64,000 nucleotides of DNA from Candidatus Tayloriibacteriota bacterium (GCA_009694955.1 SIBZ01000002.1:1418-65417); one strand, 5' to 3'. Positions 40,651-62,721 are shown, numbered from the stretch's first letter. Made by a program: numbers and translations. Notes: generated from the letters alone by a model not told the origin.

Positions 40651-40652
40651 AC

Positions 40653-41579
40653 TCACTTATTTTCGCGTATATGCCGGACCATATAAGGAGAGCGGTGTAT
40701 CATAACATAATAGACCCGGAGCAGTACCTCGGCCAAAAGTCCCATCATAAAGAGAAGAATACCGAGAATCATAAACATCGTCCCGATAACGGGAAGTGGT
40801 GTTTCGCTGAGGTTCGCAACGTGCATAAAACGGAGCACCACCGAAGAGACGAAAACAAGGAGTGAAAACCCGACAAAGGCGACGCCCCAGCCTCCAAAAA
40901 AACGCAACGGTTTTTGAAAGTATTTGACGAAAAAAGCGATACTGAGGAGGTCGAATCCACCCTTAATCATATTGGCGATTCGTATCTTCGACATACCGGC
41001 CTGCCGGACATAATGCTGAATGGGAATCTCTTTGATACGCGCGCCTTTTTCTTTCGCGACAGCAGGGAGAAACACCTGCGCGTCGCCCCACAAACGGAAG
41101 TCTTTTATGAATTTACTGCGGTATATCTTGAGACCGCTCCCGAAATCGTGCACGTCGACGCCCAAAACGGCGCGTGAGACACTATTGGCAAAATACGAAA
41201 ACACGACGCGCGTCCAGTGATCGTGCCGTACTTGGCGCCATCCGATAATCACGTCAACGTCTTCCGAAAGCTCCGAAAGAAGTCTTGGGATATCCGCGGG
41301 GTCGTGTTGCAGGTCCGCGTCAAGGAGGACAAGGATATCTCCCTTTGCTTCCTGTATGCCGACGTCGAGCGCGGGCGTCTCGCCGTAATTTCTTTGGAGT
41401 GAAATCACTTTGACCGGACAAAGGCCTTCCGTTTCTTTTTCCGTTTCGTCGGTCGAGCCGTCATTCACGAAGATGATTTCATAGGCGTGAGTGGTCTTTG
41501 CCATCGCCATGACGATACGCCGGTGCAATTCGCGCACCATCCGTGCTTCGTTGTACATGGGGACGACAATGGAAATCAT
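40653..41579 (-). CDS. GT2 polyprenyl-phosphate glycosyltransferase (GtrB/ArnC type, C-terminal TM helices)
   Basis: ATG at 41579, in an ATGA overlap with the DegT stop. ISIVVPMYNE, NDGSTDET and DADLQHD motifs, with two C-terminal TM helices. Confidence 0.85.
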   Translation of the reverse strand: MISIVVPMYNEARMVRELHRRIVMAMAKTTHAYEIIFVNDGSTDETEKETEGLCPVKVISLQRNYGETPALDVGIQEAKGDILVLLDADLQHDPADIPRLLSELSEDVDVIIGWRQVRHDHWTRVVFSYFANSVSRAVLGVDVHDFGSGLKIYRSKFIKDFRLWGDAQVFLPAVAKEKGARIKEIPIQHYVRQAGMSKIRIANMIKGGFDLLSIAFFVKYFQKPLRFFGGWGVAFVGFSLLVFVSSVVLRFMHVANLSETPLPVIGTMFMILGILLFMMGLLAEVLLRVYYVMIHRSPYMVRHIRENK

Positions 41580-42676
41580 AGTTCAAAATCTTTTATACTC
41601 TTCACGACGTATGCGAGCTCTTCGTCGAGGAGCTCCGGGCAGAGCGGTAAAGAAAGAATCTCTGTCGCAAGCATTTCGGTGACCGGTACCGACCCTTTCG
41701 CGTAGCCGAGCTCTGTATATATCGGTTGCATATGAATCGGCACCGGATAGTGTATCCCCGTACTGACCCCTTTTTCTTTGAGAAAGGCTTGGAGTGCGTC
41801 TCGTTTTTTACTCCGGATGACAAACAGATGGCACGCCGACTCCGCTCCAGAAATGACGTCCAAAACCTTAACCGAACTGCCTGAAAGAAGCGCGGTATAC
41901 CGGACAGTGAGTTCCCTTCTCTTTTCAATCCAAGACGGAAGGTGGCGCAATTTAACGCGGAGAATCGCCGCCTGTATGGTATCCAACCGCGAATTCACCC
42001 CCCATGTTATGTAGTGGTCCCGCTGTTTACTACCATACGTTCGGTACATCCGAACCTTTTCCGCAAGTTTCGGGTCGTCCGTCACAACCGCTCCGCCGTC
42101 GCCGTATCCTCCCAAATTCTTACTCGGGAAAAAGCTGAATGCGGCGATGTCGCCGAGTGTCCCCGCACTCTTCCCGTGATAGCGGGCGCCGTGTGCCTGG
42201 CAGGCGTCTTCCACAATTCGCAGGTTGTGTTTTTTGGCAATGGCAATGATTGGGTGCATATCGGCGGGTTGTCCGTACAGATGGACGAGAACAATCGCTT
42301 TGGTACGGAAAGTGATTTTTTCTTCGAGCTTCTTCGCGTCCAGGTTGCATGTCCGCTCATCCACGTCGACAAAGACGGGCACCGCGCCGAGCATTGAAAT
42401 CGTTGTCGCGGTAGACACGAACGAATTGGCAACCGTGATGACCTCATCGTCTTTCGAAATGCCGAGCGCTTTCAAAGATAGGAGAAGCGCGTCCGTACCG
42501 GACGCGACTCCGACGCACTGCTTCGCTCCGCAAAAGGTTGCGAACTCTTCTTCGAACAGTTTGACCTCCTCGCCAAGCACATACGTCCCGCTTGCAAGCA
42601 CGCGCAAAACAGCCTGGTCAATCTCATTCCGGTACCGCTCATAGCTTCTTTTCAGATGTACCAGTTCAATGTTCAT
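41576..42676 (-). CDS. DegT/DnrJ/EryC1/StrS-family sugar aminotransferase
   Basis: ATG at 42676 (MNIELVHLKRSY); the track extension to 42733 was rejected. Has the FFPSKNLG block with the PLP lysine. Confidence 0.9.
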   Translation of the reverse strand: MNIELVHLKRSYERYRNEIDQAVLRVLASGTYVLGEEVKLFEEEFATFCGAKQCVGVASGTDALLLSLKALGISKDDEVITVANSFVSTATTISMLGAVPVFVDVDERTCNLDAKKLEEKITFRTKAIVLVHLYGQPADMHPIIAIAKKHNLRIVEDACQAHGARYHGKSAGTLGDIAAFSFFPSKNLGGYGDGGAVVTDDPKLAEKVRMYRTYGSKQRDHYITWGVNSRLDTIQAAILRVKLRHLPSWIEKRRELTVRYTALLSGSSVKVLDVISGAESACHLFVIRSKKRDALQAFLKEKGVSTGIHYPVPIHMQPIYTELGYAKGSVPVTEMLATEILSLPLCPELLDEELAYVVKSIKDFEL

Positions 42677-42716
42677 ACAATAGCCCTCCAGCCCGCGAAC
42701 GATATGCGCTGTCCGA

Positions 42717-43328
42717 TTACTTTGTCTGCTCAATCGACTCCCACTTCCCTTTTTGCTTCAGGAACAGAGGGTGACTAACGATTAAGTGCCATATAACGGC
42801 TTGGAAACTTTCCGTATGCGGAGTCACGGTATCGGCATTCACCGTGGGCACCACCACACAAGCATCCGCCACCTGCTTCGTATATCCCCCGTCGCGCCCG
42901 ACGATGCCGAGCACCTTCGCCCCGACGCTCTTCGCGTATTTGACTCCCGAGACGATATTGATGCTTATCTTCTTTTCGGCATTTCCCCCTCCGACCGAGA
43001 ACACCAGCACGGCATCTTGTGCGGACAGAAAACTGCCTTTCAGCCATTCGGTCATGACCTCCTCCCATCCGTCATCGTTTACCCGCGCCGAAAATTCCGA
43101 GATATTGTCCATCGGCGTATACGCTTCAATCCCCGCGATTTTCCGGAAGTCGTTCACGGCATGACTCGCGTGCCCCGCACCGCCACCAACGCCGAGAATG
43201 AAAAGTCTTCCGCGCGCGTCCCGCACCGCTTTCAGAAGCTCAATCATCCGTTCAATGGAAGGACGGTCAAGTCCATCTACGACGCGTTTCGTCTCCGCAA
43301 GATATTGTTCTATATAAGGAAGATACAT
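42717..43328 (-). CDS. SIS-domain sugar-phosphate isomerase (divergent from GmhA)
   Basis: ATG at 43328 (MYLPYIEQYL); the track start at 43343 is a TTG. FILGVGGGAGHASHAVNDF and VFSVGGGN are SIS motifs. Confidence 0.75.
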   Translation of the reverse strand: MYLPYIEQYLAETKRVVDGLDRPSIERMIELLKAVRDARGRLFILGVGGGAGHASHAVNDFRKIAGIEAYTPMDNISEFSARVNDDGWEEVMTEWLKGSFLSAQDAVLVFSVGGGNAEKKISINIVSGVKYAKSVGAKVLGIVGRDGGYTKQVADACVVVPTVNADTVTPHTESFQAVIWHLIVSHPLFLKQKGKWESIEQTK

Positions 43329-43335
43329 AGTGGTA

Positions 43336-43364
43336 AGTATCAATGCTCAAGTATCAATTTTCAA
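43336..43364 (-). promoter_or_regulatory. Candidate sigma70-like promoter giving a leaderless or near-leaderless SIS mRNA
   Basis: The minus strand reads TTGAAA-17 nt-GATACT-7 nt-ATG(43328). Confidence 0.35.
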
Positions 43365-43410: not shown

Positions 43411-44133
43411 TTATAAACGGTAACCTGCTTGCTTGCCGTCTTCATAAAACATCTTCACGGTATCGAGTGAAAGTTTTCCGACATCGTAGCCCCACTTTTC
43501 CAATTTTTTCAGAATATCATTCGGCACGGTGATAATATGGCATCCTACTTTCTCCGCCTGCGCGATATTGTGCACTTCGCGCGTACTCGCCCAGAGAAGC
43601 TCTGCTTTTTTATTTTTCGCGAGGAGCGCCTTCGCTTTTTTCATAAGCGGAACAGGGTCCCTCCCCGTGTCTGCAACTCGCCCCGCAAACACTGAGACAA
43701 TGGATGCGGTCTTCGGCGAGAGTGCTTTTGCTGTCGCCTGTACCTGCTGTAGCGTGAGAATCGCGGTTACATTTACTTTGATGCCACGTGATGCCAGTCG
43801 TTTGACAAGTGGAAGCGAAGATTCTCCTTTCGTATTCGTAATCGGAATCTTCACGTATACATGTTCTCCCCAAGAGGCGATAAGCTGTGCCTGCCGTTCC
43901 ATCTCGGAGAAGTCGTCGGAGAACACTTCAAACGAAATCGATTTGTCCGGAATCGCCTCGACAATCTCTTTGGCGAACGCCTTGTAATCCGATACCCCGC
44001 CTTTGTGCATCAGCGTCGGGTTCGTGGTAAAACCTTTGATAAAAGGTTTTTTGGATAGCAGAAGCATTGAGGACTTTTCCGCCCCGTCCGCGAAGATGTG
44101 TATTTTCAACGAGTTAATCTGTGGTATGGCCAT
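43411..44133 (-). CDS. Transaldolase (short FSA/TalC-type)
   Basis: ATG at 44133, 240 aa. FADGA...GFTTNPTL and VKIPIT (Schiff-base Lys region) motifs present. Confidence 0.85.
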   Translation of the reverse strand: MAIPQINSLKIHIFADGAEKSSMLLLSKKPFIKGFTTNPTLMHKGGVSDYKAFAKEIVEAIPDKSISFEVFSDDFSEMERQAQLIASWGEHVYVKIPITNTKGESSLPLVKRLASRGIKVNVTAILTLQQVQATAKALSPKTASIVSVFAGRVADTGRDPVPLMKKAKALLAKNKKAELLWASTREVHNIAQAEKVGCHIITVPNDILKKLEKWGYDVGKLSLDTVKMFYEDGKQAGYRL

Positions 44134-44278: not shown

Positions 44279-44779
44279 TCAGACAGCGTCAATCTGTTTG
44301 ACTACCGAGACAAGTTCTCTCTCTTCTATCGTGCGCTGGAGACCGAGCCACTCGCTGAGTGAGTGACCTTTTGGGGATTTATGAATGGTTACCCGAGCAT
44401 GGTTCACGAAGGTCTGAACTTGTAGCACATAGTGGACTTGAACTAGTTGTTGCGCTGGCAACTCCTCACAAAGCTCAGTAACTGACTTTCTCACGGGAAA
44501 CCATGCTTCCACTAATCTCCACAAAAACGCCTTCAGTTTGCTTGTTGATACGGACGCGACGGTTGTTGCAATGCACCGACCTTGTGTGTCCAGAAACAGG
44601 AAGTCTTGCTGCATACCGTAATCCATGAATCCGCCTGTCCCTACCTCGAGCAGGAGTTTCCTGTCCACTCGCTCCACTGTCACAGAGACTTCTGACCTCT
44701 GTAGCGATATCCCGAACCTGGAGAGGTGCGGTTCGAGCCAGGGGAACTCTTTGTTGAATGCTTCATTCTTTGGTATCAT
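44279..44779 (-). CDS. Hypothetical protein, 166 aa, no recognisable domain
   Basis: ATG at 44779, preceded by the only canonical AAGGAG seen in the window. Has its own terminator and is flanked by non-coding stretches of 145 and 244 bp. Confidence 0.6.
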   Translation of the reverse strand: MIPKNEAFNKEFPWLEPHLSRFGISLQRSEVSVTVERVDRKLLLEVGTGGFMDYGMQQDFLFLDTQGRCIATTVASVSTSKLKAFLWRLVEAWFPVRKSVTELCEELPAQQLVQVHYVLQVQTFVNHARVTIHKSPKGHSLSEWLGLQRTIEERELVSVVKQIDAV

Positions 44780-44789: not shown

Positions 44790-45023
44790 ATAGCGACTCC
44801 GCTGTATGTGCATCTTCAAGCATCCCGCCTGAAGAAGGCACGGGTTACATGACTAGACAACCCTCTCATCCCGAGAGCGGTTGTGGCCTCCTTTTATGAA
44901 AGAGCAACCATAATCATCTAAACATATCTGGAGCAATAAGTCAAGTATTCCGAACGGGTTTACGTAGTAGCACCTGAAAAAACACTTTTTTTAAAAGAGC
45001 CTCTAGGAACGGCTGGCGTGATG

Positions 45024-45629
45024 TCAGCGACCCTTTAGAAACACCTTCTCACCCTCGTGCGCGTGAAGGAGATGCGCGAAGATACCGGCAATGGTGGCGA
45101 GGTCTTTGATTTCCCCGCGAAGGATTTTCTGCACAACCTGTGCGGCGGTAAGTATGAGCGTCCCGACTCCCTGCTTTTCGTCCTGCCTGCCAAGCTGGGG
45201 AAGGGGTTTGCAATCAAAGGCGAGGAACAAGTGACACCGGTCGTCAATCCGGTCCGTTTCCGAATAAAAGCCGAATCGGTTAATCCTGACGAGACGTCCG
45301 GGGCGATAACCGGTTTCCTGCGCAAGCTCCATTTTGACAACCGCCTCCGCTTTTTTCTTGGTCTCATACACACCTCCTGCCGATTCGATACTCATACCCG
45401 CTATCGGCCGACATTGCTCTGTCAGCACGAATCGCCCGTCGGTGAGACGAGCCGTGACGGATACGTATCCATTCCCTTTCATCCGTAAGATGAGGAAATT
45501 CTTAATCGTCTTGCCGTTATCAAAATGGACGTTCACCCGATGGGCCGAGAGCCACTTATCGTCGTGCAATACAGCGACAGGCTTAACCGTTCGTTTGCGG
45601 GCAACCGCCGGCGGGGTTCTTTTGGACAT
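45024..45629 (-). CDS. Nudix-fold hydrolase-like protein (degenerate Nudix box)
   Basis: ATG at 45629, 201 aa. GGVYETKKKAEAVVKMELAQETGY resembles GX5EX7REUXEEXGU, but with K and M at the first E and the R positions. Confidence 0.45.
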   Translation of the reverse strand: MSKRTPPAVARKRTVKPVAVLHDDKWLSAHRVNVHFDNGKTIKNFLILRMKGNGYVSVTARLTDGRFVLTEQCRPIAGMSIESAGGVYETKKKAEAVVKMELAQETGYRPGRLVRINRFGFYSETDRIDDRCHLFLAFDCKPLPQLGRQDEKQGVGTLILTAAQVVQKILRGEIKDLATIAGIFAHLLHAHEGEKVFLKGR

Positions 45630-45640
45630 CCGAGTATCAT

Positions 45641-45671
45641 AAAGAAAAAGCGAGGTTTATTCAACCCCGCT
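45641..45671 (-). terminator. Weak intrinsic-terminator-like hairpin after the radical SAM gene
   Basis: The minus strand reads AGCGGGG-TTGAATAAA-CCTCGCT (7 bp including one G.U) followed by TTTTCTTTAT. Confidence 0.4.
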
Positions 45672-45690
45672 CGTGTTGCACACTCGTGCG

Positions 45691-47238
45691 TTATACCGGA
45701 ACAGTGGGAGACGGCGCACCGCTTTCCCAGCGCACTCCCGCGCTTGCCAAAAGACGAGCACTGACGTGTCCCGATTTGTTCATATACTCCCATCCCCAGT
45801 CGCGTAGTTCCACAATCCGCTCTGGTGGCACCACGGTGTTTTCCAACACGCAGTTCTTCCAGTTGAGCCGGTCAGTATCGAAGTCTCCAGCGAGATGCCC
45901 GTGCTCGAGCGCGTACTCGTAGAGCATACTGCCCGGGAACGGAATCGGTATAAGGGGGGTGCAGTTTTCCGCACCGGCCTCCACCAACCGTTTTCCGAGC
46001 TCGAAACTCTGCATCATCTCCTCTTCGGTCTCGTCGGGAAATCCGACCATCATATTGACCGGGCAGGCAATACCGACCGCAACGGTCTTGCGTACCAGCT
46101 CCTCGACATCAAGGGTCGCGTGAGTAAGCTTCCCTGTCGCGTACTTGTTGAGAATGCGCTGTGAAGCCGACTCGACCGGGAACTCGATATGGTCGAAACC
46201 CGCCTCAACCAAGAGTGTCAGAAACTCCTCGTCAATGACGAGCCCCTCGCCTTCGCGCTTCTGGAAATGCGGAAGATTGACCCCGTTCACATCCGCAAGC
46301 GTGAAGCCCATACCGCGGGCTCGCTTGAAGATATCGATGATGCGCTTCTTATGCACAAAGAGCGTGTCATCTTCGAGGTAGAGTTTCGTCGTCCCGAGGG
46401 ACTTCAGCTGTGCAAGCTCGTCCATAACTCGCTCCACGGATTTGAAGCGGAGTGAACCGATACCTCCCCGCTCCTTCGCGTACTTTTTTTCGTGCGAGAT
46501 ATGACAGTAGAGGCAGGAAGCCCAGCATCCGCGCGAAGTCATCACTGGCCGATACCGTTCTCTCTTTGCGGAAAGGACGGCGTGGGGCGATGCAATCCGT
46601 TCGTAGTGAATGACGGGCAACTTTTCCCACGCGGGCATAGGTAATTCGTCGAGATATATGGAAACGTCGGAGGGAGTAACCGGCTCTGTGATGAAGTCAC
46701 CTCCATCGCCGATACGAATGATGCCGGAGACCCCACAAAGGTTCCTTTTTTCTTCCCACTTTTTGACGAGATTCACGATGATGCGTTCACCTTCGGTGAG
46801 GCACACTGCGTCCACACAGCCACTTTTGAGGAAACGCTCGGAAATACTCCTCGCGTTCACTCCTCCCGCGATAACCAAGATGTCTTGCGACACTTCCTTC
46901 GCCAGACGAGCGACGTCGAGCGCCATTCTTGTTTGCGGGGTGAAGTTCGAGCTTATGCCGACCACCGAGTAGCCACCGTTCGCAATCACTTCCCGCAAAC
47001 GTGCTTCACTCATCCCGATGCGGATAAGTCCGTTCTCCTGCATAACCGGTTTGAAAAATGTGTCTTCAAGCCGGTCCGCGTCCGTACCGACCGATGCATC
47101 GAGCACGTCAGTCTCGAAACCGGCTCGTTCAAGCGCGGAAGCGAGGTAGAGAGGTCCCAGTGACCCGTCGGGCCGGGGAGTCTCTACTCTCATCAGTTGA
47201 TTTGGCGGATAAATTAACAGTACTTTGTTTTTTGCCAC
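45691..47238 (-). CDS. B12-binding-domain radical SAM enzyme (class B, probable methyltransferase)
   Basis: GTG start at 47238. The N-terminus KVLLIYPP...GPLYLASALERAGFE is a cobalamin-binding-like Rossmann fold. Radical SAM cluster motif CWASCLYC (CX3CX2C). Confidence 0.85.
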   Translation of the reverse strand: MAKNKVLLIYPPNQLMRVETPRPDGSLGPLYLASALERAGFETDVLDASVGTDADRLEDTFFKPVMQENGLIRIGMSEARLREVIANGGYSVVGISSNFTPQTRMALDVARLAKEVSQDILVIAGGVNARSISERFLKSGCVDAVCLTEGERIIVNLVKKWEEKRNLCGVSGIIRIGDGGDFITEPVTPSDVSIYLDELPMPAWEKLPVIHYERIASPHAVLSAKRERYRPVMTSRGCWASCLYCHISHEKKYAKERGGIGSLRFKSVERVMDELAQLKSLGTTKLYLEDDTLFVHKKRIIDIFKRARGMGFTLADVNGVNLPHFQKREGEGLVIDEEFLTLLVEAGFDHIEFPVESASQRILNKYATGKLTHATLDVEELVRKTVAVGIACPVNMMVGFPDETEEEMMQSFELGKRLVEAGAENCTPLIPIPFPGSMLYEYALEHGHLAGDFDTDRLNWKNCVLENTVVPPERIVELRDWGWEYMNKSGHVSARLLASAGVRWESGAPSPTVPV

Positions 47239-47314
47239 AGATACCCTTGGGTTGATGTGTTGTCCGATTATGAAAGTCTATTGATGGAAACGAACTATCG
47301 TTTCTCAAAGAACA

Positions 47315-47998
47315 TTACATATTTCTATTGACTCTGTCAACGTCCGCGGGAGTCGAGAGGTACAGGTCCGGCTCGCCCATAACCGCGTAGACCGGAAATT
47401 TCTTAAGAAATTGATTTACCATCGACGTCAGGTACCACTCGCGTGTCCGTAGATGCCTTCTCGGCTTACACGCGAAAAGGCGCGCGGAGACGAGTATAAC
47501 GCCTCCGTCAGAAAGGCACGGCGGTGTGCAACCGAAACGTTCTTCGCGGACACCTATAATTCTTCCGTGCGCGTCGAGACGGACTCTCCCGGTCGGAATG
47601 GAGTGCGTGAGGGGGTGGCACAGCCAGCTGTACCGATGAGAAAGGCAGTCGCGCATATTTTGAGAAGACGGAAGTTCATCGCCGTGAATGATAAAGAAAC
47701 GCTCATCCGGATGTGTGAAAAAGTCGCGGGTGAGTAGCACCGCCCGCGCCGGCCCGTCAAAAACGGTTTGCGTGACGTAGTGGACGGCTCTTCCTGTATA
47801 CCGAGTACCGAGGTGTTTCTTGATGGTATCGCCCCGATACCCAACCACGACGATAACGTCGGTCACTTCTTTTGGCAGACTGTCGAAAATATGGTCGAGA
47901 ATCGGCTTCCCCCGCACGACAACGAGCGTCTTCGGGATGCTTGAGGTGAGCCGTCCCATCCTGCTCCCCTTTCCGGCAGCTAAAATAATCGCTTTCAT
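47315..47998 (-). CDS. Sugar-phosphate nucleotidyltransferase
   Basis: MKAIILAAGKGSRMG...IPKTLV. I chose the ATG at 47998; an in-frame ATG at 48013 is an alternative start. Confidence 0.8.
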   Translation of the reverse strand: MKAIILAAGKGSRMGRLTSSIPKTLVVVRGKPILDHIFDSLPKEVTDVIVVVGYRGDTIKKHLGTRYTGRAVHYVTQTVFDGPARAVLLTRDFFTHPDERFFIIHGDELPSSQNMRDCLSHRYSWLCHPLTHSIPTGRVRLDAHGRIIGVREERFGCTPPCLSDGGVILVSARLFACKPRRHLRTREWYLTSMVNQFLKKFPVYAVMGEPDLYLSTPADVDRVNRNM

Positions 47999-48063
47999 GC
48001 CGGTCGTTTTCATGCCGATAACAATAGTCTATTTTATGGTGAGCGCAAGGCGATACGCGTTTG

Positions 48064-48098
48064 CGGATACAAAAAGCCACTTCCCCCGCGGAAGTGGC
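48064..48098 (-). terminator. Rho-independent terminator after the P-loop kinase gene
   Basis: The minus strand reads GCCACTTCC-GCGGG-GGAAGTGGC (perfect 9-bp stem, 48076-48098) followed by TTTTTGTAT. It lies 18 nt after the stop at 48117. Confidence 0.75.
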
Positions 48099-48116
48099 CG
48101 TGACGATAATGCGAGA

Positions 48117-48737
48117 TTACTCCTCGAGAAACGCAAGGAGATTCTCCCAATCGATTTCCTTGTCCGTGTGCACAATGATAGAGGGGAGGTTCCCAAGATT
48201 TGTAGGCGCAGTACGTTCGCGTGCCCAGAATTCATTCCACCCATCCTTCAGGGCATCAATATCATGAGGTTCGCGCCGTGCTTGAATCCTCGCCTGGATG
48301 ACCTCTTTCGGCGCGGTGGCAAAAACTACTTTAAGGTTTACCGAATCCCCAAAGCGCGCTTTGAGTGCCGGAGCCACCACATGCTCAACATACCCCCATT
48401 CAATTTCCTTGGTGTATCCGCCTTCAAGCAGAGCGTGCTTACCCTGCGCGAGAAGGTCCATACCGACCATGAGGAGACAGTGGAGGCTCTGAAGACAAAC
48501 GCGCCTTGAGTAATGTTCCGACCTTCGTGTCCAGATTGTTCCGTTTTCCGGCAGGTAGGGAGCGAGCGTAACCCTCTCTTGATTCCTTCGTTCCCAAATA
48601 AAGGAGTTGATGATGGTGTCTCGGTTCAACACAACGGCATCTTGCGTTCTTTTCGCAATCCCGTGCAGTACCGTCGCCTTCCCGCTTGCCTGTACGCCCG
48701 CGCCCAAGATGAGCGTTGGCTTTTTGAGCGTTCTCAC
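48117..48737 (-). CDS. P-loop (AAA_33/zeta-toxin-like) kinase-fold protein with atypical Walker A
   Basis: GTG start at 48737, preceded by AAAGGA. 206 aa. The Walker A-like segment is GVQASGKAT, with Ala where Ser/Thr normally follows the Lys. Confidence 0.6.
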   Translation of the reverse strand: MRTLKKPTLILGAGVQASGKATVLHGIAKRTQDAVVLNRDTIINSFIWERRNQERVTLAPYLPENGTIWTRRSEHYSRRVCLQSLHCLLMVGMDLLAQGKHALLEGGYTKEIEWGYVEHVVAPALKARFGDSVNLKVVFATAPKEVIQARIQARREPHDIDALKDGWNEFWARERTAPTNLGNLPSIIVHTDKEIDWENLLAFLEE

Positions 48738-48800: not shown

Positions 48801-49346
48801 CTATACCAATCCGTCAAGTATCTGGCCGAACCTCGGGTCGGTAAGCGAAGCAATCCGGTAATCGGCACCGAGTGAGGTGTTGTAGGATGTTGAGAGAAGA
48901 ATACTCTTGCATCCGGCGGAAGTTGCCGCTCCGGTGTCGTACTCGGTATCTCCGAGCATACACGACTTCGAAAGGTCTATGTCCCATTTCTTCGCCGCTT
49001 GAAGCAACAGTCCGGGTTTGGGCTTTTTGCAGTCACACCCTTCTTCCCTGCCGTGGAAGCAGATAAAAATATCGTCAAACGGAAGCTTCGCAACCTCTGC
49101 TTGTATAGAGTCGAAATCTTCCTGTGTTATTTCTCCATAGTGAATATCCGGCTGATTGGTCGCGAGAATCGCAAGAAACCCGCGGTCACGCGCCGTTTGA
49201 ATTGCCTCATTTGCTCCCGGTATAATACCGCTCTGCTCTCTAAACTCCGCGATGCTTTGCGGAGCCTCCATCCTCCCCTTTTTGCAAAGCATCTTCAGTA
49301 TGACGCCGTCGCGGTCAAAAAATACCGCTTTTCTTTTGTTTGTCAT
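48801..49346 (-). CDS. gmhB: HAD-IIIA phosphatase, D-glycero-D-manno-heptose-1,7-bisphosphate phosphatase type
   Basis: ATG at 49346. FFDRDGVI, ATNQPDI and the Zn-finger-like CFHGREEGCDCKKPKPG motifs present. Confidence 0.8.
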   Translation of the reverse strand: MTNKRKAVFFDRDGVILKMLCKKGRMEAPQSIAEFREQSGIIPGANEAIQTARDRGFLAILATNQPDIHYGEITQEDFDSIQAEVAKLPFDDIFICFHGREEGCDCKKPKPGLLLQAAKKWDIDLSKSCMLGDTEYDTGAATSAGCKSILLSTSYNTSLGADYRIASLTDPRFGQILDGLV

Positions 49347-49347: not shown

Positions 49348-50097
49348 TCAGTTTGTTTTTATGTGTACACCTTCTGATAGTCCGTGCTCACGCAGATACG
49401 CTTCAACCTCCCGCCATTTCTCGATCGTATCGATTCCCTTTGAATAGTCGTCGCACTCATAGGCAAAAAAGGGTAACCCCTTGGATACAATATCGGGGAG
49501 AAGATGCTTCCCTATCTCGTACGGCACGTTGGGTGGGATATGTGAGAGGATGGTTTTGCGCAGTATGAAGACGCCCCGCATACGGTACACGTGCGAATAC
49601 TCCCGCGTATGCGGTTTTGGGTGGATGGCGAGGAAACGCCCGTCCGCGCCGACCTCCGCCACATCGGCGTCCGCGTACTCGCGCGTTTCTTTCATCCGTT
49701 GCATACCGAGCGTTGTACGGGGAAGTTTCTCCCACGCCTCACGCATTTTCGAATAATCGACAAGGCTGAACGTGTCGCCGTACACGAGAAAAAACTCCTC
49801 ATCGAGCTTGCCTTCAAATCCCTTAAGCCCTCCGGCGGTACCGAGCGGTTTCTGCTCGAACGAGTAGGTAATCCGTACATCCCATTTTGAACCGTCGCCA
49901 AAATAATCCGTAATGACCTTCGGGAGGTAGTGCGTGTTGATGCAAAACGAGTGCACGCCGTGTTTCTTAAACTGTTCAATATGCCACAGGAGAAGCGGTT
50001 TCCCCAAAATGGGAATCATCACTTTTGGCACGGTGTCCGTGTACGGACGGAGCCTGGTTCCAAGTCCCGCGCATAGTATGACAGCTTGCGTACTCAT
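49348..50097 (-). CDS. Sugar-1-phosphate nucleotidyltransferase (HddC / mannose-1-P guanylyltransferase-like)
   Basis: ATG at 50097, in an ATGA overlap with the upstream stop. AVILCAGLGTRLRPYTDTVPKVM and LGTAGG motifs present. Confidence 0.8.
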   Translation of the reverse strand: MSTQAVILCAGLGTRLRPYTDTVPKVMIPILGKPLLLWHIEQFKKHGVHSFCINTHYLPKVITDYFGDGSKWDVRITYSFEQKPLGTAGGLKGFEGKLDEEFFLVYGDTFSLVDYSKMREAWEKLPRTTLGMQRMKETREYADADVAEVGADGRFLAIHPKPHTREYSHVYRMRGVFILRKTILSHIPPNVPYEIGKHLLPDIVSKGLPFFAYECDDYSKGIDTIEKWREVEAYLREHGLSEGVHIKTN

Positions 50098-50678
50098 AGT
50101 CGTGAATGCTTCTTAATATACCGCACGGCGCTTGGGAGGTCTGTGGCGACATGGTCCGGCTTGCCCGGAAACTGCCATACATCTTTCCCTGCCTCACCCG
50201 TTTGCACGAGAATCGTCGTGAGCTTCGCGCGGTTACCCGCGAGCGTATCGCGGGTACTGTCGCCAATCATAAAACTTTTCGAAAGGTCGATGGAATGGTC
50301 GCGCGCCGCTTGCAGGATGAGACCGATTTCCGGTTTCCGGCAGTCACATTTCACACGGTATCGTTCAACATTCGCATTCGGGTGATGCGGACAAACATAG
50401 AGCGCGTCGAGCTCTGCTCCATACGGGCGTAAACGTTCTTGCAATACGGTATGTATGTCTGCAATCATTTCTTCCGTCGCCATCCCGCGGGCGATGACCG
50501 GCTGATTGGTTACGAGGACGAGGAGATACCCGAGCTGGCGGAGTTTTGCGAGTGCCTCTCCGGTACGCGGAAGGAGGCGCAGGTCTTTGACGTTATGAAG
50601 CAGGTCGACAAACCGGATGAGCGTTCCGTCCCTGTCCAAAAAAACAGCTTTACGAAGGCGCCGAAGAGAAATATGCAT
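50094..50678 (-). CDS. gmhB: HAD-IIIA phosphatase, GmhB type, second copy
   Basis: ATG at 50678 (MHISLRRLRKAVFLDRDGTLI); the 44-codon track extension was rejected. VTNQPVI and CPHHP...CDCRKP motifs present. Confidence 0.8.
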   Translation of the reverse strand: MHISLRRLRKAVFLDRDGTLIRFVDLLHNVKDLRLLPRTGEALAKLRQLGYLLVLVTNQPVIARGMATEEMIADIHTVLQERLRPYGAELDALYVCPHHPNANVERYRVKCDCRKPEIGLILQAARDHSIDLSKSFMIGDSTRDTLAGNRAKLTTILVQTGEAGKDVWQFPGKPDHVATDLPSAVRYIKKHSRL

Positions 50679-50725
50679 CCCCCGATGTTCGCATAAAACA
50701 CGGAAACCGACAAGCGGAACCGCTT

Positions 50726-50755
50726 TTGCACGGAAAGAGCTATTCGGGCTATACT
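50726..50755 (+). promoter_or_regulatory. Candidate promoter for the plus-strand gmd-GT2 pair (near-leaderless)
   Basis: TTGCAC-18 nt-TATACT-7 nt-ATG(50763). A 14-bp near-palindrome AAGCGGAACCGCTT (50712-50725) abuts the -35. Confidence 0.35.
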
Positions 50756-50762
50756 GTCGGCT

Positions 50763-51794
50763 ATGTCCACAAAACGGAAACGCGCGCTGATTACCGGCAT
50801 TACCGGGCAAGATGGTTCATATCTTGCCGAGCTCCTTGTTTCCAAAGGATACGAGGTGTTCGGCATGCTCCGGCGAACATCGACGGACCCACTTATGCGA
50901 ATCGAGAAACTCTATATGGAGAAGAAAATCACGCTCTTAAACGGCGACCTGCGTGATGAAAAAGCGGTAGAGCGGGTGATGGCGCTGGCGAATCCGGATG
51001 AGATATATAATCTCGCCGCGCAATCCGATGTCAGTATTTCGTTCGCCTGTCCGGAAGAAACATTCGATATTAACTACCACGGCGTAGAGCGCGTAGTGAA
51101 GACGGCCAAGAAGTTTTTTCCGCATTCGCGCATCTATCAGGCTTCGACCAGCGAAATGTTCGGGACGACGACACCGCCCCAGAACGAAACGTCACCGTTC
51201 CGGCCGGTCTCTCCCTATGGCGAATCGAAACAAAAAGCACACGAGTACGTAACGCGCTTCCGGGAAAAGCACGGTCTGTACATCGCTTCGGGAATTCTGT
51301 TTAACCACGAATCGCCTCGGCGCGGAAAACATTTTGTCACGCGTAAAATCACGTATTCGCTCGCCAAGATAAAGCAGGGACTGCAAAAAACGCTTTTTCT
51401 TGGTAATCTGGAAGCACGGCGCGACTGGGGATTTGCGGGTGATTACGTCGAAGCGATTCATATGATGCTCCAGGAACAAAAGCCCGATGATTTCGTGATT
51501 GCCTCCGGAGAAAGCCGTACCGTGCGGGAATTTTTCGAAACCGCCGCGAACATCGCGGGTATACCGGTACATTTCGAAGGCTCCGGCGCCAAGGAGGTGG
51601 CGAAAGACGATACAGGCCGAGTTATTCTTACAATCGACAAGCATTACTATCGCCCCGCCGAAGTTGACTACCTGCAAGGCGATGCGCGCAAAGCGAACAA
51701 AGTGCTCGGATGGAAACCGAAGACGAGCTTCGAACAGTTGGTGGCTATGATGGTCGAGTCGGATATGAGAGAAGTCGCACAGAAAGCAATATGA
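50763..51794 (+). CDS. gmd: GDP-mannose (or GDP-heptose) 4,6-dehydratase, second copy
   Basis: ATG at 50763, 343 aa. [37 protein letters not shown] and RDWGF motifs present. Confidence 0.9.
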   Translation: MSTKRKRALITGITGQDGSYLAELLVSKGYEVFGMLRRTSTDPLMRIEKLYMEKKITLLNGDLRDEKAVERVMALANPDEIYNLAAQSDVSISFACPEETFDINYHGVERVVKTAKKFFPHSRIYQASTSEMFGTTTPPQNETSPFRPVSPYGESKQKAHEYVTRFREKHGLYIASGILFNHESPRRGKHFVTRKITYSLAKIKQGLQKTLFLGNLEARRDWGFAGDYVEAIHMMLQEQKPDDFVIASGESRTVREFFETAANIAGIPVHFEGSGAKEVAKDDTGRVILTIDKHYYRPAEVDYLQGDARKANKVLGWKPKTSFEQLVAMMVESDMREVAQKAI

Positions 51795-52531
51795 AACCGA
51801 AAACCGATACCGCAACAATGGCGCGGAAAGCCGCATTGGTACTCCCCACGTACAACGAGCGAGAGAATATGCAGGCGCTCATTCCGGCCGTATACGCGCT
51901 CCTCCCCGAGCTCACCATCTACGTCGTTGACGATAATTCACCCGACGGTACCGCCCTCGCAGTTCTCGAGCTCCAGCAAAGCTACCCCAACCTCCGGCTT
52001 GTCCGGCGCGCGAAGAAAGACGGACTGGGCAGAGCGTACCTGCACGGATTCAAAGAAGCGCTTAAAGACCCGGCGGTCGAAGCGATTTTTATGATGGACG
52101 GCGACCTTTCCCACGACCCTGCGCATATGCCCGAAATGCTCGCGCTTCAAAGCACTCATGACCTTGTCATCGGTTCGCGCTACATCAGCACAGGCAGGAC
52201 GCTTGGGTGGGAGTTGTGGCGACGGCTTCTCAGCAGGTACGGCAACGTCTATGCACGAACGATACTCGGCGTCCCCTACCGCGACTGTACGAGCGGATAC
52301 AACTGCATACGTGCGTCCCTCCTTCGTTCGCTTGATTTCAACCGGCTTAACCTTTCGGGGTACGCGTTTATTATGCACCTCAAATATCTTTTGCATTCGG
52401 CAGGCGCGCGCACGCTGGAAATTCCCATTACCTACAAAAACCGGACCGTCGGAAAATCAAAAATCTCAAACCACATTATCGCGGAGGGCATCATCGCCCC
52501 ATGGAAGATGCTTTTCGGACGAAATGCGTGA
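51791..52531 (+). CDS. GT2 polyprenyl-phosphate mannosyl/glycosyl transferase (Ppm1/DPM1-like, no TM)
   Basis: ATG at 51791, in an ATGA overlap with the gmd stop; the track start at 51710 was rejected. LVLPTYNEREN, VDDNSPDGT and MDGDLSHDP motifs present. Confidence 0.85.
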   Translation: MKPKTDTATMARKAALVLPTYNERENMQALIPAVYALLPELTIYVVDDNSPDGTALAVLELQQSYPNLRLVRRAKKDGLGRAYLHGFKEALKDPAVEAIFMMDGDLSHDPAHMPEMLALQSTHDLVIGSRYISTGRTLGWELWRRLLSRYGNVYARTILGVPYRDCTSGYNCIRASLLRSLDFNRLNLSGYAFIMHLKYLLHSAGARTLEIPITYKNRTVGKSKISNHIIAEGIIAPWKMLFGRNA

Positions 52532-53951
52532 TATCCCGTACCGTTCCGGCGCGCGTGTAATATGTTTCTATATCGGAAAGATACGGCACGACATTTTTCG
52601 CGTCGTTAACCCGTACAAATAAATGCGTGAGATCCGTTTCCTGTGCAAGACGCGTGAGGAGGTTTGGCATCGGCGGTACCTTCTCGAAAAAATCAAAATA
52701 TTGGTAGAGCCTCGCTGTCGGCACAAGAGCCGCGACGGGAGCTGAGTTGACGACATAGATGTTCCCCGCCGGAGCTTCCTTTGTGATGAACTGGTTGAAT
52801 TCATCCGCGGCGGTACTTTCGAAGATGGTTGCGAAAAAGAAGAGATGGATGAGTTGCATACACACAAGTCCCGAAAGAAGGAGGTTCGCGTACCGGAACC
52901 CGCGGACGGACGGGAACCTTTTGGTTACCCTGTCACGGAATATAAAGACGGCAACCGGCAGGCAGAGCAGAAAGACTGCCTGTGAAGGCAGAAGATACCG
53001 ATTCCAGCCGATACTCTGGATGAAAAAAAGAAACGTGAGCGCGCCGTAAGCGCAAAGAAACAGAATGACGCGGTTTCCCCGTCCTTCCCACAGTTTTTTC
53101 CACGGCGCAACAACGGTAAGGAGCGCGCCAATGAGGAGCGTGTACAGTAGTGAACTTTCGGTGAACAATCGGAGCACATTAGAGAGCAGTTTACTCTCGA
53201 CACCTCCTCCGCCCGCCGTTTTGTTCTGATAAAACGAAAGAATGGGGCCGACATCAAACATGTTGCCGGCGGGGAGAAGTGTCCAGATGTACAACAGCAC
53301 GGGGAGCCCGCATCCACACCAGAGCCAGAGCTCCCTCTTCCAGGAAAACTCCTTCCGGCTACAGAGCGCGGAAAGCGCGAGGGCCGGAGCGACCAAGAAG
53401 TAAATCGGCTTCACCGCGGCGGCGAGCCCGAGAAAAAGTCCCGCGAGAAACGGAATGGCACGATGCTCCTTGAAACGGGAAAGGAGGAAAGCTCCGAAAA
53501 ACAGGGGCACCAAAGCGGGGACTTCGGCAATCACCGTCTCTCCGTTACCGTAGATTGGGGCGAAGGTGGCGAGAAACAAAAGTGAAAAGAACGCGACCCG
53601 TTTTCCGAACAGTTCGCGCGCGAGCAAGTACGCAGAAAGCAGAAACAAAAGTATCCAGCCGGTCATATACAACCGAGCGAAACGGAAATCAAACCCGAAT
53701 ATCGTAAACACGACCGACAACGGAGTAATGACCGGATATCCGGTGGTCAGGTGAAAAGGCTTCTCGTACGGTACGCCGGGCGCAGTTTGTAGGTTGATAT
53801 ACCCCTGCTCCGAAAGAGAGCGCGTTTGCTGTATATTGATTGCTTCGTCAAACCAAAAAGCGGGGAACGTGGTGAGACCGCGAAAAGAAAAACACGCGGC
53901 AAACACCAGTATCGCTATCACGAAAATCTTTTCTCGGGAGACTAGTGGCAT
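52491..53951 (-). CDS. GT-C fold membrane glycosyltransferase (ArnT/PMT_2-like)
   Basis: I chose the ATG at 53951; a GTG at 53981 is an alternative start. Has the first-loop motif FWFDEA and more than 10 TM helices. The 3' end overlaps the convergent GT2 gene by 41 nt. Confidence 0.7.
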   Translation of the reverse strand: MPLVSREKIFVIAILVFAACFSFRGLTTFPAFWFDEAINIQQTRSLSEQGYINLQTAPGVPYEKPFHLTTGYPVITPLSVVFTIFGFDFRFARLYMTGWILLFLLSAYLLARELFGKRVAFFSLLFLATFAPIYGNGETVIAEVPALVPLFFGAFLLSRFKEHRAIPFLAGLFLGLAAAVKPIYFLVAPALALSALCSRKEFSWKRELWLWCGCGLPVLLYIWTLLPAGNMFDVGPILSFYQNKTAGGGGVESKLLSNVLRLFTESSLLYTLLIGALLTVVAPWKKLWEGRGNRVILFLCAYGALTFLFFIQSIGWNRYLLPSQAVFLLCLPVAVFIFRDRVTKRFPSVRGFRYANLLLSGLVCMQLIHLFFFATIFESTAADEFNQFITKEAPAGNIYVVNSAPVAALVPTARLYQYFDFFEKVPPMPNLLTRLAQETDLTHLFVRVNDAKNVVPYLSDIETYYTRAGTVRDITHFVRKASSMGR

Positions 53952-53987
53952 ACGTTTGTTTGTATACAATAGAAAGTTCACGCGCGC

Positions 53988-62238: not shown

Positions 62239-62721
62239 TCAGTGATTAGTGGGTACACGCTTCTTCCCCGAAAACAGCATACGGGAGATGAAGAAACTTT
62301 CGCACGCAATGAGGCCCGAGGCGAGAAATTGTGCCGCCATGTACCAGATTCCCCACATAGCGACAAAGAGGTACATAAGCGCGGTATTGAGAGCGAGATT
62401 GACCCCCGCGACCACGAAATACATAGTCATTTGAGTGTGCACTCGTTCCACGGAATCGTCCTCGAATGTCCAGAACTTCTGCAGGAAAAAACTCGAAAAG
62501 AACGCGACCACGAACGCAAGCACCGCTGAGACGAGGTAGTGCATACCGAACACGTCGGTAAACAGATACAGAAATACAAAATCGATGACTGCCGAGGTAC
62601 TGCCGGAAATAAGGTACCGCAAGAACCGCGCTCGCTTGCGCAATTGCGGGGCAATCTTGGGGAAACGTCGGTCTGCGACGGCAAAGCACTGTTCTTCCCA
62701 CTCTCGGAGTAAATGAATCAT
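62239..62721 (-). CDS. GtrA-family small membrane protein
   Basis: ATG at 62721, 160 aa, 4 TM. FLRYLISGSTSAVIDFVFLYLF...FFLQKFWTF matches the GtrA pattern. Confidence 0.8.
   Translation of the reverse strand: MIHLLREWEEQCFAVADRRFPKIAPQLRKRARFLRYLISGSTSAVIDFVFLYLFTDVFGMHYLVSAVLAFVVAFFSSFFLQKFWTFEDDSVERVHTQMTMYFVVAGVNLALNTALMYLFVAMWGIWYMAAQFLASGLIACESFFISRMLFSGKKRVPTNH

Follow-up and report, generated by a model that had tools for sequence, protein, structure and literature searches.

GenK and Fom3 methylate unactivated carbons with methylcobalamin as the donor, and the substrate of Fom3 is CMP-linked. Two other enzymes with sugar-ring substrates, OxsB (oxetanocin) and AprD4 (apramycin), are not methylases: OxsB, whose substrate is a nucleotide, contracts the ring of a nucleotide sugar, and AprD4, which works without cobalamin, is a sugar 1,2-diol dehydratase. 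The majority of class B enzymes are methylases, among them HpnP and HpnR, which methylate lipids, and a published similarity network groups SD1168 with Fom3, MoeK5, GenK and Fms7 (PMC9204698). We analyzed a 64,000-nucleotide stretch of DNA from Candidatus Tayloriibacteriota bacterium (hereafter, the window), in which four consecutive minus-strand ORFs occupy positions 45024-48737, exactly as described in an earlier note: a Nudix-like protein (201 aa; 45024..45629), a B12-binding-domain radical SAM enzyme (rSAM, 515 aa; 45691..47238), a sugar-1-phosphate nucleotidyltransferase (NTP232, 232 aa; 47315..48013) and a P-loop kinase (206 aa; 48117..48737). Of these four genes, only those for the rSAM and the neighboring nucleotidyltransferase belong together, in a heptose pathway that is widely conserved in the ultra-small Patescibacteria. 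With moderate confidence, we suggest that this dedicated pathway, which would end in lipid-linked, three-component surface glycosylation, uses the rSAM for an optional tailoring step.

The B12 radical SAM enzyme and its family

The proposed heptose tailoring enzyme carries a B12-binding domain (PF02310, 49.2 bits) and a Radical_SAM domain (PF04055, 56.1 bits; Pfam) in one 515 aa protein, as expected from the class B architecture assigned to it previously, and its cluster motif is CWASCLYC (CxxxCxxC). Conservation backs the long GTG starts chosen for both the rSAM and the kinase ORF: residues Y10, P11, Q14 and L15 of the rSAM are conserved and precede the ATG of a public gene call, and the only close homologue of the kinase has the same N-terminal MRTLK. 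The rSAM family is highly conserved and uncharacterized: there are >500 homologues, the best 120 of which are 52-76% identical, no curated family threshold was passed in NCBIfam, and our literature search found no paper on the family. The best curated match was to the Sden_1168 B12-rSAM methyltransferase family (NF038361; 124.6 bits, E = 4e-36, residues 4-449), a score far below that family's cut-off of 575 bits, and the second-best NCBIfam family scored 72 bits. An AF2 model (pLDDT 88) has the class B fold and matches the structures of MgmA, TsrM, AprD4, OxsB, CysS and TokK. A GG motif, a GE motif and Asn98 are invariant in the family, and Asn98 aligns with Asn186 of OxsB, the residue nearest the cobalt in that enzyme (PMC9204698). 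Against our best explanation stand the score of 125 vs. 575 bits for Sden_1168 and the identity of the best solved relatives by sequence profile, OxsB and AprD4, neither of which is a methylase.

A probable heptose pathway around the rSAM gene

Domain and family profile searches confirmed that heptose-type genes flank the four ORFs, all on the minus strand. NTP232 (NTP_transferase PF00483, 50.8 bits) has orthologues of 38-51% identity in related loci. Beyond the P-loop kinase gene lies that of a GmhB-like HAD-IIIA phosphatase (HAD181; 48801..49346), the phosphatase type that accompanies the rSAM, which scores above threshold for TIGR01662 and TIGR01656 and below threshold for the GmhB models, and whose orthologues in related loci are 48-60% identical. 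A transaldolase (43411..44133; TIGR02134, 324 bits vs. a cut-off of 282) is proposed to supply sedoheptulose-7-P or a related ketose phosphate, and is followed by a GmhA-like SIS-domain isomerase (42717..43343; SIS_2, 26.2 bits; GmhA model below threshold). The pathway's anomeric sugar kinase, feeding the nucleotidyltransferase, is not the P-loop protein but an HddA-like kinase with GHMP Pfam domains (38528..39514), for which HddA was the best NCBIfam match (125.7 bits, below cut-off). Since all of the heptose-pathway enzymes except the transaldolase fall below equivalog thresholds, the sugar could differ from D-glycero-D-manno-heptose.

Genes for sugar modification and transfer complete the set. 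A DegT/ArnB/PseC-like sugar aminotransferase (41576..42733; PF01041, 405 bits) is a variable accessory, and an FAD oxidoreductase of the DAO family (39511..40656; PF01266) is, in related loci, fused to or located beside a GFO/IDH/MocA dehydrogenase. The ArnC/GtrB-like GT2, a predicted polyprenyl-phosphate glycosyltransferase (40653..41579), aligns from end to end with the ArnC and PgfS models, below threshold in both cases, and has two C-terminal membrane segments, with TM-like segments beginning at residues 225 and 259. Candidates for the later steps are a GtrA-like small membrane protein (62239..62721), a possible flippase for the lipid-linked sugar that shares 41.5% identity with the GtrA-family protein (PF04138) encoded in related loci; a PMT_2 (ArnT/PMT-like) GT-C glycosyltransferase (52491..53981; PF13231), counterparts of which lie near the rSAM gene in loci L004 and L007; and a polytopic membrane protein with eight TM-like segments (35844..37646), a candidate GT-C-type transferase that has no Pfam match and is weakly similar to a membrane-protein family (c18) found in related loci.

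To place these genes in context, we compared 36 loci containing this rSAM family, including the window; the rSAMs are 55-65% identical and mostly from Patescibacteria. The genes most often found with the rSAM gene were those for an ArnC/GtrB-like GT2 (32 loci), transaldolase (31), GHMP kinase (30) and nucleotidyltransferase (30), followed by SIS isomerase (27), SDR (25), HAD phosphatase (21), DegT aminotransferase (13), the polytopic membrane protein (12), DAO oxidoreductase (11, with GFO-DAO fusions in 9) and the Nudix-like protein (6). The typical order is NTP>rSAM>GT2>GFO-DAO oxidoreductase>HAD>GHMP kinase>SIS>transaldolase. Most commonly, the rSAM gene sits between those for the nucleotidyltransferase and the polyprenyl-phosphate GT2, the former being its most frequent upstream neighbor (17/36 loci), in line with the earlier note's pairing of the two, and the latter lying directly 3' in 13/36. 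Such co-occurrence ties the rSAM to a nucleotide-sugar (heptose) pathway serving a surface glycan, as had been surmised. In locus L084, an orthologous operon, whose proteins are 49-59% identical to those of the window, lacks the rSAM gene, and the stop codon of the nucleotidyltransferase gene overlaps the start codon of the GT2 gene. It follows that the pathway can operate without this enzyme, as expected if its role is tailoring, and the rSAM is probably an optional step. In a nested clade of four loci, the rSAM is accompanied by PfkB kinase, a cytidylyltransferase-like protein and GT9 heptosyltransferase, a set of the ADP-heptose type; transaldolase and SIS isomerase are kept there, while GHMP kinase and nucleotidyltransferase are exchanged for PfkB kinase and cytidylyltransferase-like protein. 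Since this clade keeps the rSAM, it is heptose to which the enzyme is linked, whichever nucleotide activates it. More distant rSAM relatives (38-41% identity) adjoin SDR, nucleotidyltransferase and GT2 genes without sugar-phosphate enzymes.

From these data, we infer which sugar is made, what the rSAM acts on and by what type of reaction, as follows. Sedoheptulose-7-P from the transaldolase would be converted to an NDP-heptose by the GmhA-like isomerase, the HddA-like GHMP kinase, HAD181 and NTP232, and the cobalamin-type rSAM would then modify the heptose. By analogy with GenK and Fom3, C-methylation is the most likely reaction: a 5'-deoxyadenosyl radical would take a hydrogen, and a hydroxyl-bearing carbon that is not activated would receive the methyl group of methylcobalamin. 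At this stage, some loci may also employ oxidoreductases or an aminotransferase. The ArnC/GtrB-like GT2 would place the sugar on polyprenyl phosphate, the GtrA-like protein would flip it across the membrane, and a GT-C enzyme would hand it to an acceptor outside.

Alternative reactions, substrates and gene groupings

The structural likenesses of the rSAM also suggest non-methylating radical chemistry on the heptose, either AprD4-like 1,2-diol dehydration or an OxsB-/HpnJ-like ring contraction or rearrangement. In a PDB profile search, OxsB (1.8e-10, both domains) and AprD4 (9.7e-10) outranked TokK, CysS and TsrM, the highest Foldseek TM-score was to AprD4 (0.66/0.73), the HpnJ model scored 63 bits, and the invariant Asn98 has its counterpart in OxsB. 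Dehydration would yield a deoxy-keto sugar that an SDR could later reduce or DegT transaminate, and SDR (25/36), DegT (13/36) and GFO/DAO (20/36) proteins could process such an intermediate. However, neither a reductase nor an aminotransferase is present in all loci, all these likenesses are remote (16-19% identity), and the strongest curated match, at about twice the bits of the next, is a methyltransferase family. Considering also that most class B enzymes are methylases (PMC9204698), we regard this alternative as unlikely.

More doubtful still is a substrate other than NDP-heptose, whereby the rSAM would act before activation (on sedoheptulose-7-P, heptose-7-P or a transaldolase product) or the pathway would build a lincosamide-like octose. 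A single rSAM clade spans GDP-type and ADP-type activation, so the enzyme could act ahead of that step. Transaldolase (31/36) and SIS isomerase (27/36) stay with it even in the PfkB/cytidylyltransferase-like clade; in loci L016, L019, L043 and L085, the genes for the rSAM and the GHMP kinase are neighbors, and the pathway enzymes score under the heptose equivalog thresholds. Nevertheless, the position most often occupied by the rSAM gene, between nucleotidyltransferase and GT2, argues for an activated substrate, as do the distant relatives that have NTP, SDR and GT2 neighbors but no sugar-phosphate enzymes, and the transaldolase scores above the threshold of an ordinary transaldolase family.

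It is very improbable that the rSAM targets something other than this sugar, for example the polyprenyl carrier, a phosphorus centre (P-methylation) or the completed glycan. The curated family that matches best bears the annotation P-methyltransferase, and P-methylation by SD1168 has reportedly been demonstrated in vitro, but Pfam scans of ~45 window ORFs found no phosphonate-pathway family. Lipids are methylated by the class B enzymes HpnP and HpnR; the physiological substrate of SD1168 is not known (PMC9204698). The rSAM gene does adjoin that of the lipid-loading GT2, yet it goes with heptose-forming enzymes across two activation routes.

The earlier note had read the four ORFs as a single unit, with sugar activation by the P-loop kinase and the nucleotidyltransferase, methylation of that sugar by the rSAM, and a proof-reading role for the Nudix-like protein. 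The genes are adjacent and on the same strand, but they are not kept together in other genomes: since, among the 36 loci, the P-loop kinase gene is present in the window alone (0/35 others) and the Nudix-like gene occurs in 6/36 loci (5/35 others), the unit is not conserved. The P-loop protein (AAA_33, 31.1 bits) belongs to a rare family (42 cluster representatives in 1.84 billion proteins), whose profile matches UMP/CMP kinase and adenylate kinases rather than sugar kinases, and the conserved kinase of the cluster, in 30/36 loci, is the GHMP kinase. The one close homologue of the P-loop protein, in locus L081, is also within a heptose-rSAM cluster, beside counterparts of the window's second nucleotidyltransferase (NTP249) and second GmhB-like phosphatase (HAD238; together 49348..50810, minus strand), which are 62% and 50% identical and thus travel with the kinase. 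From its sequence, the P-loop protein looks like a rare, lineage-specific, NMP-kinase-like accessory and not the pathway's sugar kinase. The Nudix-like protein (NUDIX PF00293, 24.4 bits vs. a cut-off of 21.1) has only 20 homologues, and among PDB entries it comes nearest to ADP-ribose pyrophosphatase and NudK. Its gene lies directly 3' of the rSAM gene in 3/36 loci and in L085; since two of three further contexts are heptose operons without an rSAM, the family tracks the heptose genes and not the rSAM. The likeness to NDP-sugar pyrophosphatases accords with the role proposed previously, whereas the proposed tie to the rSAM is not supported; the protein appears to be an occasional accessory of the heptose pathway, of the NDP-sugar pyrophosphatase type, and the window's copy, with a degenerate Nudix box (E->K, R->M, EE->QE), is possibly inactive.

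Terminator-like hairpins, each with a 10 bp stem followed by a T-run, were indeed located on the minus strand 3' of the kinase gene (48099-48075; z = -2.2) and 19 nt past the rSAM stop codon (45672-45648; z = -4.1), and part the kinase and Nudix-like genes from the NTP-rSAM pair. A third (44259-44240; folding z = -2.0) follows an orphan ORF of 166 aa (44279..44779, minus strand) between the Nudix-like and transaldolase genes, for which no match was found in Pfam, NCBIfam or PADLOC and no counterpart in the 35 related loci. The whole region has 17 terminator-like sites vs. 11.4 +/- 3.3 expected, without clear enrichment; these three have the longest stems of the 17, and all are intergenic and on the coding strand. 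A hairpin lies 3' of the rSAM gene in 24/36 loci, and the motif GCGGGGTTGAAWAAACCCCGC of the post-rSAM hairpin is common to 12 loci, with compensatory changes; its covariance model found no other strong copy in 1.16 Mb. The kinase homologue in L081 is also followed by a hairpin, but a different one. Taken together, the rSAM architecture and the heptose link of the earlier interpretation are borne out, and the four-gene unit, largely refuted by co-occurrence, is hardly credible.

Comparison with known systems

The lincosamide octose route employs the same five enzyme families (LmbR transaldolase, LmbN isomerase, LmbP GHMP kinase, LmbK phosphatase and LmbO nucleotidyltransferase), and there too the transaldolase is cluster-encoded; the likeness is by enzyme family only, and the window's transaldolase passes the threshold of an ordinary transaldolase family. 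OxsB and AprD4 are the closest solved structures by profile and among the best by fold, but OxsB differs in its CX4CX2C motif and in additional domains at both termini, and neither is linked to heptose genes. The rSAM resembles the Sden_1168 family (NF038361) over nearly its full length, and differs in scoring far under its cut-off. With GenK, Fms7, GenD1, MoeK5 and Fom3, it shares its architecture, in which a B12-binding Rossmann domain at the N-terminus precedes a CxxxCxxC rSAM barrel, and a predicted carbohydrate substrate, probably nucleotide-linked; its nearest curated family, SD1168, clusters with this group in the published network (PMC9204698). In contrast to these enzymes, the rSAM is encoded in a conserved surface glycosylation operon of Patescibacteria and DPANN archaea and not in an antibiotic cluster, and its methyl transfer is predicted.

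Like GtrA/GtrB/GtrC, ArnC/ArnE-F/ArnT and CsbB/GtcA/YfhO, the window encodes a membrane-anchored GT2, a GtrA-family protein and GT-C/PMT_2 transferases. The proposed donor, however, is a (modified) heptose and not glucose, GlcNAc or Ara4N, and the GT2 is below the thresholds of both ArnC and PgfS. A parallel in enzyme content is the GDP-D-glycero-alpha-D-manno-heptose pathway of S-layer and capsule glycans (GmhA, HddA, GmhB and HddC), which has the same four families and a gene order matched in many loci; genes for GDP-mannose-dehydratase-like SDRs are located near those of the window. From this pathway, the window differs in that all four of its proteins are below equivalog thresholds, that its cluster encodes a transaldolase, and that a B12-rSAM is inserted between activation and transfer.

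The four genes and their conserved neighbourhood

The earlier note had read four consecutive minus-strand genes as a single sugar-modifying unit, and its sequence observation was confirmed, since the ORFs, their Pfam domains and the accompanying hairpins were all recovered. The genes encode a Nudix-like protein (45024-45629 (-), 201 aa; NUDIX Pfam 24.4 bits, barely above the cut-off of 21.1), a radical SAM enzyme, here rSAM (45691-47238 (-), 515 aa; B12-binding and Radical_SAM domains, CWASCLYC cluster motif), a nucleotidyltransferase, NTP232 (47315-48013 (-), 232 aa; NTP_transferase domain), and a P-loop kinase (48117-48737 (-), 206 aa; AAA_33). A consensus scan for a stem plus T-run located both of the terminator-like hairpins that had been described, one after the P-loop kinase gene (48099-48075 (-); folding z = -2.2) and one after the rSAM gene (45672-45648 (-); folding z = -4.1), each with a 10 bp G+C-rich stem followed by a T-run; a third, with an 8 bp stem and T-run, lies at 44259-44240 (-) (folding z = -2.0). 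Public gene calls place the start of rSAM at an ATG 15 codons too late (47194-47238) and that of the P-loop kinase at an ATG 10 codons too late (48708-48737); N-terminal conservation in homologues supports the upstream GTG codons as the probable starts.

When the ~45 larger ORFs of the window were scanned against Pfam, all annotatable ones fell into sugar activation, modification, transfer or export, and no housekeeping genes were found among them. Given the small genome of such an organism, 64 kb of glycan genes is a very large share of sequence. Unusual for a Patescibacteria glycan island are two proteins with a Capsule_synth (KpsC/KpsS-like) domain (5021-6475 (-) and 18654-20168 (+)) and an 829 aa protein with a CotH-kinase-like region and a beta-helix region (23867-26356 (-)). 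Also encoded in the island is a protein of 455 aa in which two stretches belong to the nitroreductase family (33493-34860 (-)).

Homologues of rSAM number more than 500, the best 120 of these being 52-76% identical, and their organism labels, where given, are nearly always of Patescibacteria lineages. Complete genomes with the gene include CP066691.1 (Niyogibacteria, 837 kb). We compared the window with 35 long loci from one-genome-per-species contigs, each bearing an rSAM at least 48% identical; approximately three quarters bear the label of a Patescibacteria lineage, a few that of Woesearchaeota, Nitrospirae, Elusimicrobiota, Pelagibacteraceae or other taxa. Clustering of all ORFs from these 36 loci showed that rSAM (36/36) is accompanied by an ArnC/GtrB-like GT2 (32/36), a transaldolase (31/36), a GHMP kinase (30/36), an NTP transferase (30/36), a SIS isomerase (27/36), an SDR epimerase/dehydratase (25/36), a HAD phosphatase (21/36), a class I methyltransferase (17/36), DegT (13/36) and a DAO oxidoreductase (11/36, plus a GFO-DAO fusion in 9/36). 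The usual order is (SDR, GtrA) NTP, rSAM, GT2, GFO-DAO, HAD, GHMP kinase, SIS, transaldolase, methyltransferase and polytopic membrane protein, with the NTP gene immediately 5' of rSAM in 17 of the 36 loci and GT2 immediately 3' of it in 13. The window operon is a rearranged form of this order, with three insertions: the genes of the Nudix-like protein and the P-loop kinase, and an orphan ORF of 166 aa. The proposed four-gene unit therefore fails on co-occurrence in other genomes, since the nucleotidyltransferase is a regular companion of rSAM while the Nudix-like gene occurs in 6/36 loci and the P-loop kinase in 1/36, the window itself. One related locus, L007 (a RIFCSP contig labelled 'Deltaproteobacteria'), carries a second, distinct B12-binding radical SAM gene (positions 1-742, 575 aa) ~5 kb upstream of its family member.

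The P-loop kinase, which had been taken as the sugar kinase of the pathway, was rejected for that role because its family is rare and its profile NMP-kinase-like. It matches PF13671 (AAA_33) at 31.1 against a cut-off of 27; one close homologue (67% identity) was found among 5.8 billion proteins, and an exhaustive HMMER search of 1.84 billion proteins yielded 42 cluster representatives. The close homologue also lies within a heptose-rSAM cluster, beside orthologues of the window's second nucleotidyltransferase and second GmhB-like phosphatase (NTP249 and HAD238, 49348-50810 (-)). Among 28 relatives, G14, G19, K20, R150, R154 and D159 are conserved (P-loop and RxxxR...D), and a profile built from them is similar to UMP/CMP kinase in the LID region and to adenylate kinases in the P-loop; these residues and matches suggest an NMP-kinase-like protein rather than an anomeric sugar kinase. 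With a pLDDT of 53, its AF2 model was too poor for use.

Closest among solved relatives of the Nudix-like protein, a family of 20 members, are ADP-ribose pyrophosphatase and the GDP-mannose pyrophosphatase NudK (PDB). An NCBI protein attributed to a Candidatus Taylorbacteria MAG has the identical sequence (100%). Its gene lies in a heptose cluster in 9/9 contexts examined, two of which (L083 and L084) are devoid of rSAM. Compared with the canonical Nudix box, GX5EX7REUXEEXGU, that of the window protein reads G-x5-K-x7-M-E-L-A-Q-E-T-G-Y, with three charged signature residues replaced; the box is intact in the L027 and L017 orthologues and near-intact in those of L025 and L043, where the replacements, R->K and E->D, are conservative. 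The degenerate box and the contexts lacking rSAM leave the role assigned to this protein within the four-gene unit unsupported. A defence or toxin system, combining a zeta-toxin-like kinase with the Nudix protein, was also considered and set aside, as PADLOC gave no meaningful match.

The proposed heptose operon with and without rSAM

The window transaldolase passed the TIGR02134 model (324.3 bits, cut-off 281.95). GmhA, HddA, GmhB and HddC were among the top NCBIfam matches of the SIS, GHMP kinase, HAD and NTP proteins, all of them below threshold and ranked first only for the GHMP kinase: NTP232 scored 51.6 bits against HddC (cut-off 300), the GHMP kinase 125.7 against HddA (cut-off 600), the SIS protein 45.2 against GmhA (cut-off 209), and the GmhB-like phosphatases HAD181 (48801-49346 (-)) and HAD238 scored 96 and 149, respectively, against GmhB (cut-off 178). 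Superfamily-level Pfam and HAD-IIIA models were passed by the pathway proteins except SIS, which fell marginally short of SIS_2 (26.2, cut-off 27).

In one related locus, L084, an operon at 2772-9947 runs NTP, GT2, GFO-DAO, GHMP kinase, HAD, Nudix, SIS and transaldolase with rSAM missing, its products being 49-59% identical to the window proteins. No space for an rSAM gene is left there, as the stop codon of NTP runs into the start codon of GT2. The sugar would therefore be made and transferred without rSAM, which fits a decoration rather than a core step for the enzyme. Operons with and without rSAM thus provide a natural comparison pair, with L084 as the minus-rSAM comparator. A scan of metagenomes anchored on the DAO protein returned mostly distant paralogues (26-32% identity), and its relevant loci, L087 and L089 with rSAM and L091 without, give no estimate of how frequent rSAM-less operons are.

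The association of rSAM appears to be with heptose and not with a particular nucleotide, since the activation set is swapped in a nested clade of four loci (L015, L026, L031 and L032, ~10000-15000). There, an ADP-heptose-type set of PfkB kinase, cytidylyltransferase-like protein and GT9 heptosyltransferase takes the place of the GHMP kinase and NTP transferase; all four loci keep the transaldolase, and two of them the SIS isomerase as well. More distant rSAM relatives (38-41% identity) have SDR, NTP and GT2 genes but no heptose genes beside them, which ties the broader family to nucleotide sugars.

A DAO-family FAD oxidoreductase, for which there is no curated family, adjoins GT2 and stands alone in the window (39511-40656); elsewhere it forms a fusion with a GFO/IDH/MocA sugar dehydrogenase (9 loci, e.g., L049 12515-14500; L018 5760-7837) or lies adjacent to one (~5 loci). 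One speculative idea is that it recycles the oxidant for a WbpB-like dehydrogenase. The window also encodes a TylC3-like NDP-sugar C-methyltransferase (28602-29822 (-); Methyltransf_13 zinc domain and Methyltransf_14 C-terminal domain), of a family present in 6/36 loci, so the island also encodes the classical way of making a C-methyl sugar, without radical chemistry.

The rSAM enzyme and its 3' hairpin

The rSAM protein scored 56.1 bits against PF04055 (Radical_SAM; cut-off 29.5) and 49.2 against PF02310 (B12-binding; cut-off 32.1), and the cluster motif C238-W-A-S-C242-L-Y-C245 (CxxxCxxC) is invariant across 22 family members. S97-N98-F99, G125-G126 and E149-G150-E151 show no or almost no variation, and the invariant Asn98 aligns with Asn186 of OxsB, the side chain closest to cobalt in that enzyme (PMC9204698). 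This alignment, together with the GG and GE motifs, supports the prediction of a genuine cobalamin site. The AF2 model is confident (pLDDT 88.3), and Foldseek matched it to MgmA, TsrM, OxsB, CysS and TokK with E-values of 1e-19 to 1e-15; relationships to the solved class B or class-B-like enzymes MgmA, TsrM, AprD4, OxsB, CysS and TokK are remote (TM 0.55-0.66, 16-19% identity). The family profile ranked OxsB first among solved relatives, followed by AprD4 and TokK. AprD4 has a similar B12-type domain yet does not use cobalamin, so sequence alone would fit either case in rSAM. Overall, the biological setting is new, and the family is best described as a putative variant of the class B radical SAM enzymes.

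A terminator-like hairpin lies 3' of the rSAM stop codon in 24/36 loci. In 12 diverged loci from several clades its sequence is near-identical, GCGGGGTTGAAWAAACCCCGC followed by a T-run, beginning ~10-50 nt (mostly 10-25 nt) past the stop codon and present even where a co-directional GT2 is the next gene. These copies are located at 45648-45672 (-) in the window, 11532-11569 in L009, 11307-11344 in L011, 11519-11556 in L012, 11543-11579 in L014, 11558-11594 in L016, 11298-11335 in L023, 11513-11550 in L025, 11544-11583 in L044, 11538-11575 in L047, 11547-11584 in L049 and 9009-9046 in L087. The stem is 95% paired, with compensatory changes at three pairs (e.g., G-C to A-U), a measure inflated by the selection of these sequences by motif. 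A covariance model found no further strong copies over 1.16 Mb of related loci; its ten next-best matches were weak, and 4 of the 10 lay at an rSAM 3' end. That a non-coding hairpin is conserved among loci whose proteins have diverged this far suggests a function for this 3' element, which could lie in attenuating or terminating transcription or in stabilising the transcript; hairpin and rSAM gene may move together as one cassette. A search for riboswitches, of the cobalamin or another type, yielded no Rfam hits for the window when gathering thresholds were applied, and within 43000-51000 there were no credible ones at E <= 1.

Predicted reaction and comparison with known systems

Radical modification of a nucleotide-activated heptose, as the earlier note had proposed, is a reasonable idea that the comparative genomics strengthens. 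In its full form, i.e., that this B12-type rSAM family carries out a C-methylation or rearrangement of such a heptose for lipid-linked surface glycosylation in many Patescibacteria and some DPANN archaea, we hold it tentatively, at a little under an even chance. Within that tailoring model we favour, at roughly even odds, C-methylation at an unactivated, hydroxyl-bearing carbon of NDP-heptose. Besides the features of the cobalamin site, this preference draws on the top curated match of rSAM, the Sden_1168 model (NF038361, a B12-rSAM P-methyltransferase), which aligned over the full length at 124.6 bits (cut-off of 575 missed) compared with 72 bits for the second-best family. SD1168, whose physiological substrate is unknown, groups with Fom3, MoeK5, HpnJ, GenK and Fms7, and the majority of class B enzymes are methylases (PMC9204698). 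The main rival is that rSAM performs a dehydration or rearrangement instead of a methylation; the AprD4 diol-dehydratase model (NF033070) matched over the rSAM domain only, at 42.4 bits, and missed its cut-off of 500. A phosphonate or P-methylation context drew no support, as Pfam scans of the ~45 larger window ORFs detected no family of the PEP-mutase type.

Full-text searches and reviews, including one of 2026, returned no literature on B12-rSAM enzymes together with heptose, nucleotide sugars or Patescibacteria glycans. The sugar-acting B12-dependent radical SAM enzymes that we know of come from antibiotic pathways (gentamicin, fortimicin, moenomycin and oxetanocin). If our reading is correct, the present family, a distinct one with hundreds of members (55-65% identity) in a conserved surface-glycan operon of ultra-small, uncultivated bacteria, would be the first such radical enzyme known to serve a cell-envelope glycan and not an antibiotic, and if it modifies an NDP-heptose, both the sugar and the enzyme reaction would be new. 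Such organisms are generally thought incapable of cobalamin synthesis; the envelope decoration of these reduced symbionts would then depend on scavenged cobalamin. The family would also offer a way into the almost unknown envelope chemistry of Patescibacteria.

The window GT2 aligned over its full length, below threshold, with ArnC (153.7 bits, cut-off 529) and PgfS (133 bits, cut-off 500), and has two C-terminal TM-like segments, from residues 225 and 259. Related loci encode proteins of the GtrA family, and the window has one at 62239-62721; PMT_2 proteins, and polytopic membrane proteins that carry no annotation, are encoded at 52491-53981, 29834-31687 and 35844-37646. By the mechanism we propose, the NDP-sugar would be passed onto polyprenyl phosphate, the polyprenyl-linked sugar would be flipped over the membrane, and a GT-C enzyme would hand the sugar to an acceptor outside it. 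In its GT2, GtrA and GT-C-like parts, the gene layout of the window resembles that of GtrA/GtrB/GtrC- or Arn-type systems.
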